A DNA stretch of 64,000 nt, taken from a virus. The DNA lies in the IMG/VR virus record IMGVR_UViG_3300050120_000169, positions 1 to 64,000 of that record. One strand, given 5' to 3'. The notes under the pieces are model-generated. The model was not told the DNA's origin. It was given only the letters and a program-made list of their open reading frames with translations, and ran no database searches. Positions within the stretch are counted from its first letter, which is position 1. The number at the start of each line of letters is the position of its first letter. A program made the position numbers and the translations under genes. Positions 2,986 to 63,320 of the stretch are shown piece after piece.

Positions 2986-3660
2986 ATGACCGCTGCAACG
3001 AACTACACCACGAACAAGTTTTTGGTAGATAACATCCTTCGTGGTCAAAGCAATACCCCGCCAACCTCGCTGTACTTCGGGTTGTTTGTGGCTGACCAAG
3101 GTTACTGGGTGGCGAGCCATGCCTATACCAGTGGGCAGTTTGTGCTCCCGGCTACCCCGAACGGCCACATTTACAAGTGCACGACCAGCGGCACGTCGGG
3201 TACGAACGCCGCAATTTTCAACACTGTGACCACGCCGGGTCAGACGGTTACGGATGGCACCGCCGTGTGGACGGAAGAAACGCTAGTGTTGGTGGCAGGG
3301 ACGTATTCCACCTACCCGCCAGAATGCACGTACACCAGCTATGCCCGCGAGTTGGTTACGTCCTCGCTGGCCGACTGGTCCGGTACTCAGTCGCAAGGCT
3401 CCACCACGGCTTCGACGGGTAGCAGCACGACGCTTAACAGCGTGGCGCTAAACACCTTCAATAACAACGCTGTGGCTTTCCCAGCACCGACCGGTAATCA
3501 GACGGGTGTTGTGGCTGGTATGTTTATCATCGATAATGCGACGGCAGGCACCAGCGGGAACATCCTGTTCTGGTCGATGCTGACCAACCCGAAGACGATC
3601 AACAACGGCGATGCGGCTCCGAACTTCCCGCAGTTTGCATTTGAACTTAGCTGGAGCTAG
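2986..3660 (+). CDS. Putative virion structural (fibre-associated) protein
   Basis: TNY..NK..D..LRGQ...P.SLY.GLF N-terminus, FPAPTG and LTNPKTINNGD C-terminus, with a W...HAY..GQ.V...NG.IYKCTTSG insert. Confidence 0.55.
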   Translation: MTAATNYTTNKFLVDNILRGQSNTPPTSLYFGLFVADQGYWVASHAYTSGQFVLPATPNGHIYKCTTSGTSGTNAAIFNTVTTPGQTVTDGTAVWTEETLVLVAGTYSTYPPECTYTSYARELVTSSLADWSGTQSQGSTTASTGSSTTLNSVALNTFNNNAVAFPAPTGNQTGVVAGMFIIDNATAGTSGNILFWSMLTNPKTINNGDAAPNFPQFAFELSWS

Positions 3661-3662
3661 GC

Positions 3663-4073
3663 ATGGCGTACTGCCCTCCGGCAGTGCCGCTCAAGATCCC
3701 TCTGATTGAGAAGGTTCCGAGTGCGGTACTGAATTATGGGTTCGACCTCTCGCCTTCGGCCACCAATCCAGACAATCCCTGGGCAGCACCAGGGGTGACT
3801 TTGGTTCCTTGGCTGGCCCCGGGCGAAGAGGTTATTACGCTATTCATGACCCTCGGTGTTGGATCAGTAAGTGGCACGAACGATTTGATGCTGGTAGACC
3901 AGCAGATCACCGCAAACGCCACGGGCATACCACAAAGTTTGCTAACGGCCTGGATCAGTGGCGGGATTGCCGGTAATACATATTTAGTGACGTTTAGCTG
4001 GTTGACGAACAGCACCCCCGTTGGACGCCAAGATAGTCGGTCGATGAACATCCTTTGCGTGGCTACGTTGTAG
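3663..4073 (+). CDS. Putative fibre/tail adaptor structural protein
   Basis: K.P.AVLNYGFD, WL..GE.I, TAWISGG..G..Y.VT motifs. Confidence 0.5.
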   Translation: MAYCPPAVPLKIPLIEKVPSAVLNYGFDLSPSATNPDNPWAAPGVTLVPWLAPGEEVITLFMTLGVGSVSGTNDLMLVDQQITANATGIPQSLLTAWISGGIAGNTYLVTFSWLTNSTPVGRQDSRSMNILCVATL

Positions 4074-4084
4074 CGGAGAAGAAC

Positions 4085-4294
4085 ATGACATTCGAAAGCA
4101 TCAAGAAAGAACTATCGGTGGCGATCCTGCTGGTGATGCTCCTGGCAATGGACTATCTCAAGATTGTTGACCCGGAACTCAAGTACCTGATCATGGGTTT
4201 GGCGGGCACGATTACCGGTTTTGGTGGCTTCCAGGCCTCTCCGCTTAACCCGGCCAACAAAACAGCATCCGGGGGACCAGCCGCCCCTCAATGA
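4085..4294 (+). CDS. Small two-TM membrane protein (holin-like)
   Basis: Two hydrophobic segments; GGAG RBS before ATG 4085. Confidence 0.5.
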   Translation: MTFESIKKELSVAILLVMLLAMDYLKIVDPELKYLIMGLAGTITGFGGFQASPLNPANKTASGGPAAPQ

Positions 4295-4412
4295 TGTAGC
4301 CGCCGAGCCGGTGATTGAGCCGGTGGCCGCATTGACACAGGAATTACAACAAGAAGCATTAGAATTGCCAATCCTTATCGAAGTCCCCCCACATACACAG
4401 ACGGAGTTGAAA

Positions 4413-4769
4413 ATGTCTATCCCGGATATCGCAGTATCAGACGTGACCGACGTGCTGAATGGCCTAGCGTCGTTGTTTGAAAAACCTGCATTTCAGGCCG
4501 CGTTGCCTGTAGTGATCACCCTCGTTGCTGATCTGGCAGAAGGTGGTGCAGCCGCATCGAATCCCTTGCTGTCGGCCCAGTTTTTGGCGACCCTGGTGAG
4601 TCAAATGCCGGTGATCGAACCCGCAGTATTGCAGGCAGGTGTCACGTTGTTCGGCGCAATCAATGCTGCGATCAAACCGAAAGCAGCGGAACCTGCACCC
4701 GCACCTGTCGTTGAACCTGTCCCGGAGCCGGTTGCAGAACCTGCACCCGTAGCCCAGCCAGCCGCCTAA
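4413..4769 (+). CDS. Hypothetical protein with C-terminal AEPAP/EPVP repeats
   Basis: GGAG RBS before ATG 4413, in frame with ORF 4221..4769. Confidence 0.55.
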   Translation: MSIPDIAVSDVTDVLNGLASLFEKPAFQAALPVVITLVADLAEGGAAASNPLLSAQFLATLVSQMPVIEPAVLQAGVTLFGAINAAIKPKAAEPAPAPVVEPVPEPVAEPAPVAQPAA

Positions 4770-6778: not shown

Positions 6779-6794
6779 CCGCAATTGATTGCGG
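6779..6794. repeat. Dispersed palindrome copy 2
   Basis: CCGCAATTGATTGCGG, intergenic before portal. Confidence 0.9.
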
Positions 6795-42971: not shown

Positions 42972-44256
42972 TCTCGGTCTTCGGGCGATTCGTCGCCTCT
43001 GCGAACAACAGGAAACATACGAGTGGTATAAGTCAAAACTGAGTCCGTTGTTGTTTAAACCGAACGAACAGCCAGTTTTTAAGTGGGTTGACGATTTCGT
43101 ACGGACTCACCACGCACTACCTCAAATCGATACGTTGGTGAAATACTTCCCCGCCGTGGCTGATGTCCCGGCGACCGAAGTAGCTAGTTATTACGTGGAC
43201 TTGCTGGAGAACGATTACTGCTTTTCGAAAATCGTGCAGTGTGGTCAGGATAGTGCCAACCTACTGAAAGAGAATAATGCGGCCTGGAAGCCAGCCGCCG
43301 AGATCCTGCGGCGAACGCTTAACGACATTTCCCGCCAGCAGTATCGGGAAAAGATTATGGATTTCGGAGCCGAGGCCAATAGTTTGTTGACCAAGACCTA
43401 TTACGGCTTGGAGAAAGTGCCGAATATCAGCGGTTTTGGCTGGCCGTACATGGATGAAATGGGTGGGGCGATGCCCGGGGACGTGGTGAGCTTCATTGGA
43501 CGCCCACAAATGGGTAAGTCTTGGCTCACGTTGTACACCGCGCTACATAACTGGCGAGTGCGCAAGCACAGTGTGTTGTTCGTCAGCATGGAAATGAGTC
43601 ACTTGCCAATCGCCCAACGTGCGGCGACGATGATTGCCCACACGAATTTGACGCAGTTAAAGCACGGGCACCATTCGGACAAGGGTTATTCGACGCAGAC
43701 CGAGAAGCTGTTTTTCTCCAGTATGGAGACGATCACCAGTCCAGTCGAAGACGGTGGCGCACGGTTGTACATTGTTGACGGTAACCTAGCAGCGGACATG
43801 GAGGACATCTTCTCCCTGGCTGATCAATTGGGATGTCAGACGGTGATTATTGACGGCGCTTATCTTTGCCGCCACAAAAACGGACGCCTGGACCGATTCA
43901 CACGAGCGGCTGAAAACTGCGAAAGCATGAAGCGCTACAGCAATGACCTGATGCTCGCCAGCTTTGCTAGTTGGCAGTTCAACCGGCAGGCGGCGGATAA
44001 GCAGAAGAAAAAAGGCGGCACGGCTGAAATTGGGTTGGAAGACATCGGGTACTCGGATGCCATTCCCCAGATCAGTAGTATCGTGCTGGGGCTATTCCAA
44101 GAAGACGGGGTGGAGACTATGACCAAGAAAAACATCCGGGTCATGAAAGGCCGGGGTGGCGAGGTAGGTGAGTTCGACATTGGGTGGGATTTCAACACTA
44201 TGAATTTTGATCAAATCGGGATTAAGACCGAGGATTTTCAAAATATTTATATTTGA
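42961..44256 (+). CDS. DnaB-like replicative helicase
   Basis: GRPQMGKS, VLFVSMEM, VIIDGAYL, QFNR, IGYSDAI.Q, MKGRGG. Confidence 0.9.
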   Translation: MAVNLGLRAIRRLCEQQETYEWYKSKLSPLLFKPNEQPVFKWVDDFVRTHHALPQIDTLVKYFPAVADVPATEVASYYVDLLENDYCFSKIVQCGQDSANLLKENNAAWKPAAEILRRTLNDISRQQYREKIMDFGAEANSLLTKTYYGLEKVPNISGFGWPYMDEMGGAMPGDVVSFIGRPQMGKSWLTLYTALHNWRVRKHSVLFVSMEMSHLPIAQRAATMIAHTNLTQLKHGHHSDKGYSTQTEKLFFSSMETITSPVEDGGARLYIVDGNLAADMEDIFSLADQLGCQTVIIDGAYLCRHKNGRLDRFTRAAENCESMKRYSNDLMLASFASWQFNRQAADKQKKKGGTAEIGLEDIGYSDAIPQISSIVLGLFQEDGVETMTKKNIRVMKGRGGEVGEFDIGWDFNTMNFDQIGIKTEDFQNIYI

Positions 44257-44280
44257 CAAATATCGAATTCGGCTTATAAT
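44253..44280 (+). promoter_or_regulatory. Sigma70-type promoter
   Basis: Consensus TTGACA-16 bp-TATAAT. Confidence 0.8.
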
Positions 44281-44470: not shown

Positions 44471-45274
44471 GTGACTATGACCGTATTACATGAATTACTT
44501 GCAGCAGAAAAGACGGTGACCAGTGCGCGTGACCGCCTCACCGAAGACACAGACAACAAGTTCGGCAAGCAGGAATCCTTCTTTACCGGGGGCACCAAAA
44601 CCCTCGAAATGTTGGGTGACGATCAAGCCAATAAGTCCATCGAAGCCGCAGCGCGGGCCGACAAGGAACTGGCAACCACTGTGGTAGCGACACTTGACTA
44701 CTACCTGACGTATTGGGCCAAGGCCGAGACGTTACTGGCGCAAAAGAACCTGACCAATACCCGGGCACTGGCTGACCTCGAATTTCGCGGCACCACGATT
44801 GCCAACGATGTACCGGTTGACGAACTGATGGGCCTGGAAGTGCGGCTGACGGATTTTCGTAAGCTGGCTTTGCGGATCCCCACGCTCGATGCCAGCCGGG
44901 AATGGCAGTACGATACGAGTGCCGAGCAACAGGGCACCTATCGGGCGGTCAAGCCTACTGTTACGACCAAAACCGAGAAGGTGGAAGTACCGGTTATTCT
45001 GGTGCAACCGACCAAGGAACACCCGGCACAGGTCAAGATCAGTAGCGCGGACAAGGTGGTGGGCACGTTCACGACCCAGCATACCAGCGGCGCTATTGCG
45101 GCGATTCAGAAGGCCAATTTGCTGGCGGTGATCGATGATCTGATCATTTCTGTCAAGGCCGCCCGGGTGCGTGCTAACTCGGTAGAAGTCAGCAAGGTCC
45201 CGGGTTTGGGCGAAACGATCAAAACACTGTTGATGGAGCCGTTGAAGGCGGCCCCGATCAACAATGCGGTATAA
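44471..45274 (+). CDS. Helical phage protein of unknown function, directly upstream of the tRNA-like RNAs
   Basis: LHELLAAEK, IPTLD, KEHPAQV, VKAARVRAN. Confidence 0.65.
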   Translation: MTMTVLHELLAAEKTVTSARDRLTEDTDNKFGKQESFFTGGTKTLEMLGDDQANKSIEAAARADKELATTVVATLDYYLTYWAKAETLLAQKNLTNTRALADLEFRGTTIANDVPVDELMGLEVRLTDFRKLALRIPTLDASREWQYDTSAEQQGTYRAVKPTVTTKTEKVEVPVILVQPTKEHPAQVKISSADKVVGTFTTQHTSGAIAAIQKANLLAVIDDLIISVKAARVRANSVEVSKVPGLGETIKTLLMEPLKAAPINNAV

Positions 45275-45288
45275 ACAGTAAGTGCGAA

Positions 45289-45460
45289 ACAGGTAGCGTT
45301 ATCGTTATAGTTGGCGTCGGGTTAGGTTGGTTCGAATCCAACCCGTCCCGCCAAGTTTTCCGCAATTAACTGCGGAGGATTTCACGGGACGGTGGCCGAG
45401 TGGATACAGGCCCACATGCGAATGTGGAAAGACCCAGTTTATGATTTTCGTATCACCTGT
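45289..45460 (+). ncRNA. Circularly permuted tRNA-like RNA 1 (Y RNA/YrlA-like topology)
   Basis: T-arm 45326-45342, CCGTCCC-G-CCA 45343-45353, then GGGACGG 45386-45392 and D-arm; ends pair ACAGGT/ACCTGT. Confidence 0.65.
45360..45375. repeat. Dispersed palindrome copy 12 (variant)
   Basis: CCGCAATTAACTGCGG, in loop of tRNA-like RNA 1. Confidence 0.8.
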
Positions 45461-45462
45461 CA

Positions 45463-46186
45463 GCATTGTCTTATGCAACAGCGGCAAAAGTAGTCCGGCA
45501 AGCAGCTTCGCGCACCCCTGATAAGAGCGCGAAGCATAAGTCAAGGTCATCGGTTCGAACCCGGTCGCCTCCTCCTGAGTAACTTGTAAAACTATGAATG
45601 CTAAGCAGTACATTCTTGACCGGAGTTTGGAAATAGGGGATTGCTGGATATGGCAGCAATCTACGGATAAGAATGGTTACGGTTGTGCCTGTTTTAATGG
45701 TGTGTATTTAGGCGCTCACCGGCTTTCATTCATGGCTTTTGTTGGGGAAATACCTTCTGGTATAAAAGTGTTACATACTTGCGATATTCCTTCTTGTGTG
45801 CGACCACAACATCTATTTCTTGGAAGTCATCAAGACAACATGGATGATATGGTTAAAAAAGGGAGGTCTGCCAAGGGTGTGCATATGAATACTGGAAGTG
45901 CGCACGGTTCAGCGGTTTTGACGGAAGACCAAGTTTTACTAATTCGCAAACTTTGTGAAGAAGGTAGGTCACAAAATTCAGTGGAAAGAGAATTTGGATT
46001 GTCCAAAGGACTAGTGAATAAAATAGTGCGTAGAAAACTATGGACCCACATATAGGTTACTGAGCGGAGGCGTAGCTCAGCGGTAGAGCATTGGCTAATT
46101 GAGTTATCGTAACTGGCTTGGATGTGATGAAAAACGCAGTTGGGTGAAAGCCGAAGTCCCCAGCAGGAGTCGGGCATGACAAATGC
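45463..46186 (+). ncRNA. Circularly permuted tRNA-like RNA 2 with HNH gene in the acceptor-stem loop
   Basis: T-arm 45549-45565, CGCCTCC 45566-45572, then GGAGGCG 46066-46072 and D-arm TAGCTCAGCGGTAGAGC; ends pair 45463-45476 with 46174-46186. Confidence 0.6.
45594..46055 (+). mobile_element. HNH homing endonuclease with C-terminal HTH
   Basis: CWIW, GYG, AHRLS, VLHTCD.PSCV.P.HL..G...DNM.DM..KGR; AT-rich. Confidence 0.9.
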
Positions 46187-46245
46187 GCGGGGGCTTTCTA
46201 ACTGGCCTTGGACACAGGACCGGGCAGAAAGCGCACTTCAATGGA

Positions 46246-46434
46246 GTGACCGTGATTGATACCACACAAACCCCGTATTACAAGGGTTACAAAGCCTTCC
46301 TAGATTACAACCGGGGCGATACCCCCATGCCTGACAACCCATTTGTAGAAGGTAGCAATGATTACGGGCGGTGGGTTGATGGGTATGGCGATGCTCTTGG
46401 CGACTGGGAAGCCTGGATGGAAAGCGATATTTAG
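46246..46434 (+). CDS. Small protein with Rmf-like motif
   Basis: YYKGY.A...NPF..GS..Y..W.DGY; GGAG RBS near GTG starts, start codon uncertain. Confidence 0.45.
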   Translation: MTVIDTTQTPYYKGYKAFLDYNRGDTPMPDNPFVEGSNDYGRWVDGYGDALGDWEAWMESDI

Positions 46435-46443
46435 GAGCAGCAC

Positions 46444-47280
46444 ATGGCATTGAATTTTGTTGGTGGTAAGCCGGTAAAAGTGGATAAGAAGATTATCCCT
46501 GTTGAAGAAATAAAAACCCCCGCTCCCCCTCCTTCGGGGGACTTCAAGTATTCGGATAAAGAACTGGCCGCGTTCCTGCTTGAGCAAGCACAGCAAATCA
46601 AGGCTGCGACTGCTGTACCGGGTTCGTTGTTGACCGCACAAGAACCGGAAAAGATACCGATCTACGTCAATGTTACGCATACAGTGGCCCCCGCCCCCTC
46701 GATTTTTGGATCATCGGGCATTCTAAACAACGAATTGTATGCCCAAGGCGTCACGCCACCCCCCGGGACGGTATTGGCCGATGGCACGACCACGTACTTG
46801 AGTAAGCTGCAAATCCCCGTTTCGGAATTAACGGTCGAGGACCAAGTAAAGCTTTCTCAGGACCAAGAACCGCAGTCAATTGCGGTGGAACAGGCGCACT
46901 CGGAAGTGCTGACGTTGGTAGACGAGTACACCGAACTGCAAGCGGAAATCGATGCCGTTGACATTTCTGCCCAGTTGAAAGCCCAGGAAACGATCAAAAA
47001 GCGGCTGGCGCAGATTGCCAAATCCGATAATTACCCGTCGAATAAACCCGTACAGCTATGCGGCACGCATGGCAACTACGTGGAGTTCAGCGCGGCGGCC
47101 AACTCGGTGAAGATCACCGACAAGGCGGGTATGGCGATGTATCTCGGTGCGCCAGTGTGGATTGAGCACACCGAAATGACGCTGGCCGAAGCCAAGAAGA
47201 TCCTCAGCGAAAACGAACTTGCCAAGTACACGTCTAACGTCCCGGGTAGTCGGACGCTCAAAACCGTTTATAAGGGGTAG
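46444..47280 (+). CDS. Hypothetical protein
   Basis: ORF with AGGAG RBS. Confidence 0.6.
   Translation: MALNFVGGKPVKVDKKIIPVEEIKTPAPPPSGDFKYSDKELAAFLLEQAQQIKAATAVPGSLLTAQEPEKIPIYVNVTHTVAPAPSIFGSSGILNNELYAQGVTPPPGTVLADGTTTYLSKLQIPVSELTVEDQVKLSQDQEPQSIAVEQAHSEVLTLVDEYTELQAEIDAVDISAQLKAQETIKKRLAQIAKSDNYPSNKPVQLCGTHGNYVEFSAAANSVKITDKAGMAMYLGAPVWIEHTEMTLAEAKKILSENELAKYTSNVPGSRTLKTVYKG
46870..46885. repeat. Dispersed palindrome copy 13 (variant)
   Basis: CCGCAGTCAATTGCGG, in CDS. Confidence 0.8.
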
Positions 47281-62824: not shown

Positions 62825-63320
62825 AAAAGCTGGGAAGAAAGTAAGGGATTGGTTAGGTGATATTAAAGCTGTGCAATTGATTGCGGAAGGGTGCGGTGAA
62901 TGTATGCCCTATACTGGTCGAGTAGATAAAAACGGGTATGGTAGATGCCCCTGGGAAGGGGTTGGAAATACTTTAACGCATCGGTTAGCCTATGCAGTGG
63001 CTCATGACTTATCACTAACAGATATCGAGGGTGTAGTGGTTCGACACACTTGTGATAACCCTCCGTGTTGTAACCCTAATCATTTAGTTGTCGGGACACA
63101 CGGGGATAATTGCAAAGATAAAATTATTCGCGGAAGACTTCCGGTTGGAGAAGACGCAGGTCCGTCTAAATTGACCGAAGCCCAAGTTAGAGAAATTAAA
63201 ACTAGATTATTGGGCGGAGAACGTGGCAAAGTGTTAGCAAAAGAGTTTGGCGTCCACGTGATGACGATTAGTGATATCAAGCGTGGGGCCACATGGAGGC
63301 ATGTAAATGTCCAAGTTTAA
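62799..63320 (+). mobile_element. HNH homing endonuclease with C-terminal HTH
   Basis: GYG, THRLAY, VVRHTCDNPPCCNPNHL..GT..DN..D...RGR. Confidence 0.9.
62871..62886. repeat. Dispersed palindrome copy 19
   Basis: GTGCAATTGATTGCGG, inside HNH gene. Confidence 0.9.

Follow-up and report, generated by a model that had tools for sequence, protein, structure and literature searches.

Free-standing homing endonuclease genes reside in the tRNA gene clusters of phages, as exemplified by SegB of phage T4 and the F-Tfl enzymes of phage T5, and from the two-piece transfer-messenger RNA (tmRNA) an intervening segment is removed by processing without ligation. The 23S ribosomal RNA (rRNA) of Coxiella burnetii carries in its helix 45 a 428-nucleotide (nt) intervening sequence (IVS) with an open reading frame (ORF), which is excised by RNase III and leaves the rRNA fragmented (PMC4990558), and endonuclease-bearing insertions have been described in rRNA genes of the candidate phyla radiation (CPR; PMC11270868). 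Equally, the YrlA RNA of Mycobacterium smegmatis is cleaved by RNase P at its acceptor stem in vitro and receives CCA in vivo (Chen et al., 2014; PMC4201824). Here, the first 64,000 nt (in the following, the window) of an 80,087-bp phage genome from IMG/VR (IMGVR_UViG_3300050120_000169) have been analysed, in which an HNH gene lies inside a tRNA-shaped module of an RNA linked to a DUF7873 protein gene. This gene is, with good confidence, a free-standing homing endonuclease cassette in place of the short hairpin linker between the two acceptor strands of the second of two modules (module 2). No paper on permuted tRNA-like or Y-type RNAs with endonuclease inserts in phages was found in a literature search that had most subscription journals outside its reach, and no protein-coding insert in the acceptor loop of a YrlA RNA was found described.

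The heptamers CGCCTCC (45566–45572) and GGAGGCG (46066–46072) form the acceptor stem of a permuted tRNA-like module through seven Watson-Crick pairs. They had been noticed in the initial annotation as flanks which, together with AGTAAC (45578–45583) and GTTACT (46056–46061), pair and loop out the ORF; all five elements lie where they had been placed, and the pairing of the flanks with the ORF looped out is recovered upon folding. The order of elements in module 2 is T-arm, acceptor 3′ strand, linker, acceptor 5′ strand and D-arm, all on the plus strand. The 3′ strand GTCAA (45540–45544) of an anticodon-stem equivalent and the variable region GGTC (45545–45548) precede the T-arm ATCGG TTCGAAC CCGGT (45549–45565), in which the equivalents of G53:C61, T54-Psi55-C56 and A58 are present. 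The acceptor 3′ strand is followed by a linker of 493 nt (45573–46065), within which the HNH cassette spans 45576–46065, and the acceptor 5′ strand, beginning with G at +1, leads into a stretch (46073–46095) with U8, A9, the D-arm GCTC AGCGGTA GAGC (46075–46089; GCTCAGCGGTAGAGC), A26 and the 5′ strand TTGGC (46091–46095) that pairs with GTCAA. In the cultured Ralstonia phage phiRSL1, the anticodon-stem equivalent is found in the same place as CCTGA/TCGGG.

The linker has little room beside the ORF, 21 nt on its 5′ side and 10 nt on its 3′ side. The pairing of AGTAAC with GTTACT in these borders is real and longer than had been claimed, as the clamp 5′ strand CTGAGTAAC (45575–45583, extending to ~45588) pairs at eight of nine positions with the clamp 3′ strand GTTACTGAG (46056–46064), which follows immediately after the HNH stop codon, and the helix extends to approximately 13 bp. 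In the unconstrained minimum free energy fold of 45536–46100 with the ORF included, the anticodon-stem equivalent, T-arm, acceptor stem, clamp and D-arm all form and the ORF is looped out (z −3.7). Rfam models gave no intron, ribozyme, GOLLD/ROOL or tRNA match in 44800–46800 at E values up to 10. A group I or group II intron has been rejected on the basis of this search and of the 21 plus 10 nt around the ORF. ARAGORN called no tRNA and no tmRNA in the window, upon which ordinary tandem tRNAs have been rejected. The characterization as a permuted tRNA-like RNA stands with respect to topology, but the module has no anticodon loop, constitutes one domain of a longer RNA and is not a permuted tRNA gene. 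Such genes, known from algae and archaea, likewise have the 3′ half upstream of the 5′ half; this candidate has been rejected since the strands of the anticodon stem run into other RNA domains, no tRNA is called by ARAGORN and the first module (module 1) carries a GNRA tetraloop in the place of an anticodon loop. The pentamer CATAA before GTCAA was considered as an anticodon remnant and dropped, as it is unconserved in phiRSL1 or in the related jumbo phage L182.

HNH-less alleles, which the initial annotation had proposed to look for in related phages, do exist and break exactly at the acceptor-stem boundaries. Among Logan contigs aligned to 44900–46700, two contigs of 31.8 and 28.8 kb from watershed runs (X5 and X6) are 96–98% identical to the window in both flanks, with 14 differences in 44900–45575 and 16 in 46066–46478, and skip the 490 nt from 45576 to 46065; in their place, 24 nt that form a hairpin, ATTCACATGAGGCGTGTGCATCAA, join 45575 to 46066. 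On the 5′ side, C75 of the tRNA-like 3′ end is the last base before the swap, with TCCA in the empty and TCCT in the window allele, and the 3′ boundary falls at the base before G+1, such that the acceptor 5′ strand marks the exact end of the exchange. A virtual empty module 2 is predicted to fold cleanly as a permuted cloverleaf, its linker forming a hairpin. Furthermore, a peat run (X3), in which the HNH form is also present at 100% identity, contains a short contig of a more distant relative with 45575 joined to 46072 by 29 other letters. An exact-pattern search of IMG/VR for the 5′ half of module 2 returned nothing, nor did a search for closer loci with protein P0003 as query. The 99.5-kb contig of the nearest relative (L001/L179, IMGVR_UViG_3300050120_000213) ends between module 1 and module 2, with no module 2 in the remainder, and this end may be an assembly break caused by the presence/absence polymorphism of HNH.

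These alleles bear on the view that the insertion has killed module 2 or even the whole RNA, with the flanking halves as decaying remnants. The insertion does destroy A76 of the TCCA in the empty allele, and the covariance model of YrlA cannot score the interrupted module 2, but the alleles do not differ in T-arm, acceptor and D-arm, with identity extending over 30 nt on the 5′ side of the insert and 62 nt on its 3′ side, and the differences elsewhere in the RNA are compensatory. In a 9-bp hairpin with a 13-nt loop between the two modules (45505–45535, plus strand; GCTTCGCGC / GCGCGAAGC), T45507C is accompanied by A45533G and T45508C by A45532G in the HNH-less allele, with C45509T and C45530T leading to G-U pairs; T45541C and C45542T keep the pairing of the anticodon-stem equivalent of module 2, and the loose end in a third run (X4) shows a compensatory change of the D-stem from GCTC/GAGC to ACTC/GAGT. 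Purifying selection acts on the RNA. As, in addition, a distantly related HNH-bearing phage described below retains both modules, the 3′ motif and a terminator despite long divergence, and as a conserved clamp would be senseless in a dead gene, decay of the RNA is considered very improbable.

The HNH gene occurs a second time in the same linker, in a 215-kb phage (L181) with a DUF7873 protein 57% identical to that of the window. In this locus, the T-arm, CTCCGCC, a 498-nt linker encoding a 156-amino acid (aa) HNH protein, GGCGGAG and the D-arm follow each other. The clamp of L181, TCACTGTGTAT / ATACAGTGA, is homologous to the window clamp with one compensatory A:T to T:A change and is continuous with the acceptor stem, creating a composite helix of approximately 20 bp with a duplex energy of −35.6 kcal/mol; acceptor stem and clamp of the window allele amount to a composite helix of similar length with −29.1 kcal/mol. 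Together with the HNH-less alleles and the lack of an intron or ribozyme family match, this orthologue bears out the suggestion that the position tolerates cargo and offers a safe harbour without ribozyme. As in the Coxiella IVS, the insert sits at the hairpin tip of a structured RNA and is closed by its own stem. On the model of that RNase III-excised element, RNase III would cut the composite helix, free the HNH RNA and leave stubs that are maybe trimmed, an explanation which the paired leader and the length of the helix in both alleles and the compensatory clamp change speak for. However, the helix of the window is broken by a 2 × 1 internal loop and one mismatch, and the clamp could merely keep the fold together or repress translation of HNH, and RNase III-type excision appears somewhat unlikely. 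Retention of the linker as an uncut, looped-out insert is possible and fits the data equally well.

The gene itself (45594–46055, plus strand) is intact and codes for a 153-aa protein with a C-terminal helix-turn-helix, which is assigned to the HNH_3 family of homing endonucleases (PF13392; 46.4 bits with a cut-off of 24.8, E 3e-12) and matches PHROGs 59, 1872 and 6254. In an alignment of 14 sequences H42, H61, C63, D64, C68, H73 and H79–M86, including H79 and N82, are invariant, with catalytic and zinc-binding residues kept. The protein is 63% identical to its L181 orthologue, with a non-synonymous proportion (pN) of 0.24 and saturated synonymous sites; purifying selection acts on HNH as well. 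The other HNH relatives in IMG/VR are 49% identical or less. None of the 67 scanned loci of such relatives showed nesting in a permuted module, the loci of further relatives being outside the scan, and 4–5 of the 67 adjoin tRNA or tmRNA genes. Purifying selection and the same location in two distant phages might equally be expected of an HNH protein domesticated as a working part of the DUF7873-RNA system. Such a role is, though, most improbable, as the 96–98% identical allele, phiRSL1 and over 100 further loci lack the gene, its cassette has a foreign GC content (41% vs. 52% in the genome) and, by sequence, it is a member of an ordinary HNH_3 family of phages. A second HNH_3 gene, at 62892–63305 of the window, is 35% identical to the nested HNH.

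The RNA that hosts the cassette is the DUF7873-linked RNA of approximately 400–450 nt with two YrlA-like back-to-front tRNA mimics, found at most of about 130 sampled loci that encode DUF7873 relatives. In the window, the ORF-poor stretch downstream of the DUF7873 gene consists of two tRNA-shaped modules with reversed arm order. DUF7873, encoded at 44471–45274 on the plus strand (PF25283, E 2e-59), has 1039 homologues including ORF270 of phiRSL1 and is the conserved partner of the tRNA-mimic RNA. Its AlphaFold2 model has a mean predicted local distance difference test score (pLDDT) of 85.6; a Foldseek comparison with the PDB returned no match at E 0.001 or better and only weak rows, including Cas7-type proteins, with TM scores of ~0.1, and the best match in the wide VIA search (Z 9.1) was to helical designs. 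Sequence comparison with PHROGs, NCBIfam and the PDB yielded no match, and no mention of DUF7873 was found in the literature searched, which included few subscription journals.

To define the module family, a pattern consisting of a 5-bp T-stem, a TTCRANY-type loop, a 7-bp acceptor and a D-arm signature was used. In the 62 kb that directly follow DUF7873 genes it matched 86 times, whereas the remainder of that strand (391 kb) gave 5 matches, the other strand 2 and shuffled sequence (310 kb) none; with this enrichment of more than 100-fold, chance complementarity of the acceptor strands has been rejected. Of 80 distinct DUF7873 loci, 59 carry a strict and 75 at least a relaxed module. All 12 T-stem and acceptor pairs show many compensatory types, their 100% pairing being circular as seeds were chosen by pairing. 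In the anticodon-stem equivalent, a feature unused in picking, all five pairs form in 42% of 69 modules vs. 5% with shuffled partners, and at least four of five in 83% vs. 35%. In phiRSL1, both modules lie in an unannotated 485-nt gap after ORF270, the DUF7873 gene (L111/L180 3287–3770, corresponding to AB366653.2 ~189208–189691, minus strand, annotated as intergenic), with a module 2 linker of 31 nt, which would make this cultured phage a ready experimental system for the HNH-less form.

Module 1 of the window (45326–45426, plus strand) is composed of the T-arm (45326–45342), the acceptor 3′ strand CCGTCCC (45343–45349), GCCA (45350–45353), a 32-nt linker (45354–45385), the acceptor 5′ strand GGGACGG (45386–45392), a class II-type D-arm (45395–45411) and a GNRA-capped hairpin (45413–45426). 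It is also present in L001, where the DUF7873 protein is 93% identical, with the T-stem changed from GTTGG/CCAAC to GCTGG/CCAGC. As had been reported, its linker holds a genome-wide palindrome: one copy of CCGCAATYRATTGCGG is located at 45360–45375, one of ~15 sites in the window vs. 0.8 expected (28 strand-matches), with others for example at 6779, 25915, 32166, 35119, 38537 and 46870, and the module 1 linker of L001 contains a variant of it. The extra hairpin after the D-arm is a trait of the window clade (window 45413–45426; L180 3457–3473; L181 3700–3715). Its loop is the GNRA tetraloop in the window, the 7-nt CUAAUCA in phiRSL1 and UUCUAAU in L181, the last of which would present CUA if read as an anticodon loop; as the loop is unconserved, decoding is unlikely. 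In three jumbo-phage relatives, module 1 has ORF-less linkers of 147–153 nt (L181 3526–3672; L182 ~4292–4443; L183 ~3566–3718) closed by a stem of 12–14 bp, ACCAAACACGCT / AGCGTGTTTGGT, which may be an extension with a structure of its own or a remnant of an earlier cassette.

Of all parts of the module, the linker varies most and can be dispensed with. In 67 non-redundant modules its length ranges from 6 to 49 nt with a median of 28. NCCA follows the stem in 30 and NCC in 44 of these modules (about 1 and 4 by chance), 50 have G at +1 and 31 have U at −1, and in 15 of 25 short A/U-rich linkers UAU occupies positions −3 to −1 before G+1; other family members have linkers that are long hairpins, unbroken extensions of the acceptor stem. 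This signature raises the question of whether the host tRNA maturation machinery excises the linker, as had been proposed for the HNH-bearing module: RNase P would cut before G46066, the 3′ end would be trimmed to NCC and CCA repaired, the HNH mRNA would be the released spacer, and the mature RNA would consist of pieces held together by the acceptor stem, intron-like with neither ribozyme nor ligation. In line with this scheme, the module stacks a 7-bp acceptor on a 5-bp T-arm and has the full set of tRNA tertiary nucleotides, the short A/U-rich linkers resemble tRNA spacers, the allele swap starts exactly after CC75 and stops at −1, and the M. smegmatis YrlA RNA, which shares the topology and has a stem of 7 bp, is an RNase P substrate in vitro and acquires CCA in vivo (PMC4201824). 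On the other hand, both HNH-bearing alleles have C75 in a pair and a leader that is paired up to −2 (window) or through −1 (L181), the sequence of the window allele is TCCT, numerous modules of the family lack CCA and form long, continuous acceptor hairpins, and such cleavage is not seen with Salmonella YrlA and Deinococcus radiodurans Yrn1 (PMC4201824). A gene for a CCA-adding enzyme was not found in the phage. On balance, physical removal of the linker by some host RNase is slightly more likely than not; RNase P cleavage at +1 is a tentative proposal, and the complete maturation scheme is likewise plausible without being probable.

With these elements, the history of the cassette reading of the HNH gene can be outlined. 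The cassette would have taken the place of a 24-nt-type hairpin linker at the acceptor stem of module 2, and the 7-bp acceptor stem, together with the ~13-bp helix which the cassette supplies, would keep the insert outside the fold, so that the tRNA-like core can still form. A sigma-70-type promoter-like site (TTGACA, 16 nt, TATAAT; 44253–44280, plus strand) with 12 of 12 consensus letters upstream of the DUF7873 gene is, judged from this consensus match, the likely start of a transcript that carries the DUF7873 gene, the RNA and HNH, and no terminator-like site is predicted on the plus strand before 46600. As the 21 nt between acceptor stem and ATG leave no room for a promoter of its own, HNH would be transcribed within the DUF7873-RNA precursor and translated either from the precursor or from the released linker. 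Since the clamp ends ~5–10 nt before the start codon and its full 13-bp form includes the stop codon, folding and translation are expected to compete. The cassette would spread and be lost at one site, as homing endonuclease genes do; presence/absence polymorphism at a single site is indeed observed, with empty alleles on one side and the occupied L181 on the other.

Several points weigh against this reading. The sequence just inside the cassette ends is unrelated to the linker of the empty allele, which indicates a swap of the whole linker and not a clean insertion. No Shine-Dalgarno sequence precedes the HNH ATG. The runs X5 and X6 belong to one study. Transcription, the RNA ends and translation of HNH have all been deduced from the sequence, and the case for continued function of the RNA is built solely on the fact that two HNH-bearing lineages have conserved its features.

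Further features surround the two modules. A 3′ domain of the RNA (46096–46165, plus strand) with a conserved GTTATCGTAAC motif (46104–46114) aligns with phiRSL1 and L181 and, with its 3′ end placed from the sequence alone, stops short of the AGGAG ribosome-binding site of an 83-aa ORF (46183–46434) directly after the RNA, which has no family match and possesses an alternative GTG start at 46252 preceded by GGAG. Repeats of a GTTATCGT / GTTAGCGT-type motif in the same sense surround the modules in every clade (window 45283–45315, 45440–45460 and 46100–46114; L180, i.e. phiRSL1; L188–L201). As CGUUAGCG is self-complementary if G-U pairs are allowed, with CGUUAUCG leaving two U-U mismatches, the motif copies could pair mutually or be binding sites for protein, and they could be bound by DUF7873. 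The genome has four ordinary tRNA genes (Phe, Ser, Cys and Gln) at C1 74172–74664, outside the window. Other endonuclease genes are located between DUF7873 and the RNA, namely GIY-YIG genes in L006/L040 and L182 (L006 4722–5300, minus strand; L182 ~3560–4200, plus strand) and HNH genes with NUMOD3 repeats in L010/L003 (L010 4726–5442 and L003 4966–5298, both minus strand), of which the L003 gene looks truncated. By gene content, the DUF7873-RNA locus is a hot spot for endonuclease genes.

New here are the empty alleles, the second occurrence in L181 and the linker statistics of the family. The locus can be regarded as a natural insertion experiment on the DUF7873-linked double tRNA mimic, an RNA that is very widespread among phages, in which the acceptor-closing loop measures 27 nt or 493 nt in near-identical phages; the loop end is either cut open during maturation or functionally uninvolved. 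Whether tRNA mimics are processed to free CCA ends becomes directly testable. With a second independent occurrence and empty alleles, this is a homing endonuclease gene inside a structured RNA gene without an intron, protected only by a clamp helix. A wider proposal, that it represents a mobile intervening element homed at the 3′/5′ junction of a permuted tRNA-like fold and removed by RNase P, 3′ trimming and CCA repair, perhaps with RNase III at the clamp, is regarded as doubtful; if true, such an element would need neither ribozyme nor ligase and its mRNA would be the released spacer.

Among the known systems, YrlA (RF02553) is closest in architecture, with its T-arm, loop-closed acceptor-like stem and D-arm, an anticodon-stem side that opens into the remainder of the RNA and tRNA tertiary nucleotides kept. 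The YrlA model spans the modules of several relatives end to end (1–114 of 114) at 32–36 bits vs. a gathering score of 69, and has no match at E values up to 10 in the window, where module 2 is interrupted. No Ro60/TROVE gene (PF05731) was detected in the 80-kb genome, in a search that did detect the positive controls. Considering the score below gathering and the missing Ro60/TROVE gene, the RNA resembles YrlA in topology without belonging to that family; its partner is DUF7873 instead of Ro60, and two modules are combined in one RNA. The heptamer GCCGAAG at ~46150 fits the Ro-binding motif GNCGAA(N)G by eye and is unconserved in phiRSL1 or L181. The order T-arm and acceptor 3′ strand with CCA, intervening segment and acceptor 5′ strand is shared with the two-piece tmRNA, and the beta_tmRNA model has weak matches exactly at the module junction, at 13.7–27 bits (13.7 in the window) vs. 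a gathering score of 84; a two-piece tmRNA has been rejected on grounds of this score, of the absence of a tag reading frame or of a tmRNA called by ARAGORN and of the presence of a true D-stem.

With the IVS of 23S rRNA, the cassette shares a foreign ORF-bearing segment of ~0.4–0.5 kb at the hairpin tip of a structured RNA, an own closing stem and the lack of a ribozyme, and the rRNA that hosts the IVS works without religation. Here, however, the host is a phage tRNA-mimic RNA and the ORF is intact and under selection, whereas the Coxiella ORF is decaying. Endonuclease ORFs in the peripheral loops of group I introns, archaeal bulge-helix-bulge introns and the insertions in CPR rRNA genes resemble the locus in that looping-out of the ORF preserves the fold and that homing maintains the ORF at one site; in contrast to group I and bulge-helix-bulge introns, there is no ribozyme core or bulge-helix-bulge and no exon ligation, the ‘exons’ being the halves of an acceptor stem. 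Like SegB and the F-Tfl enzymes, finally, the HNH gene is an endonuclease gene between conserved tRNA-type sequences with a patchy occurrence among close relatives, but those genes lie between separate genes, whereas the nested HNH gene lies, with its clamp helix, between the 3′ and the 5′ half of one and the same fold.

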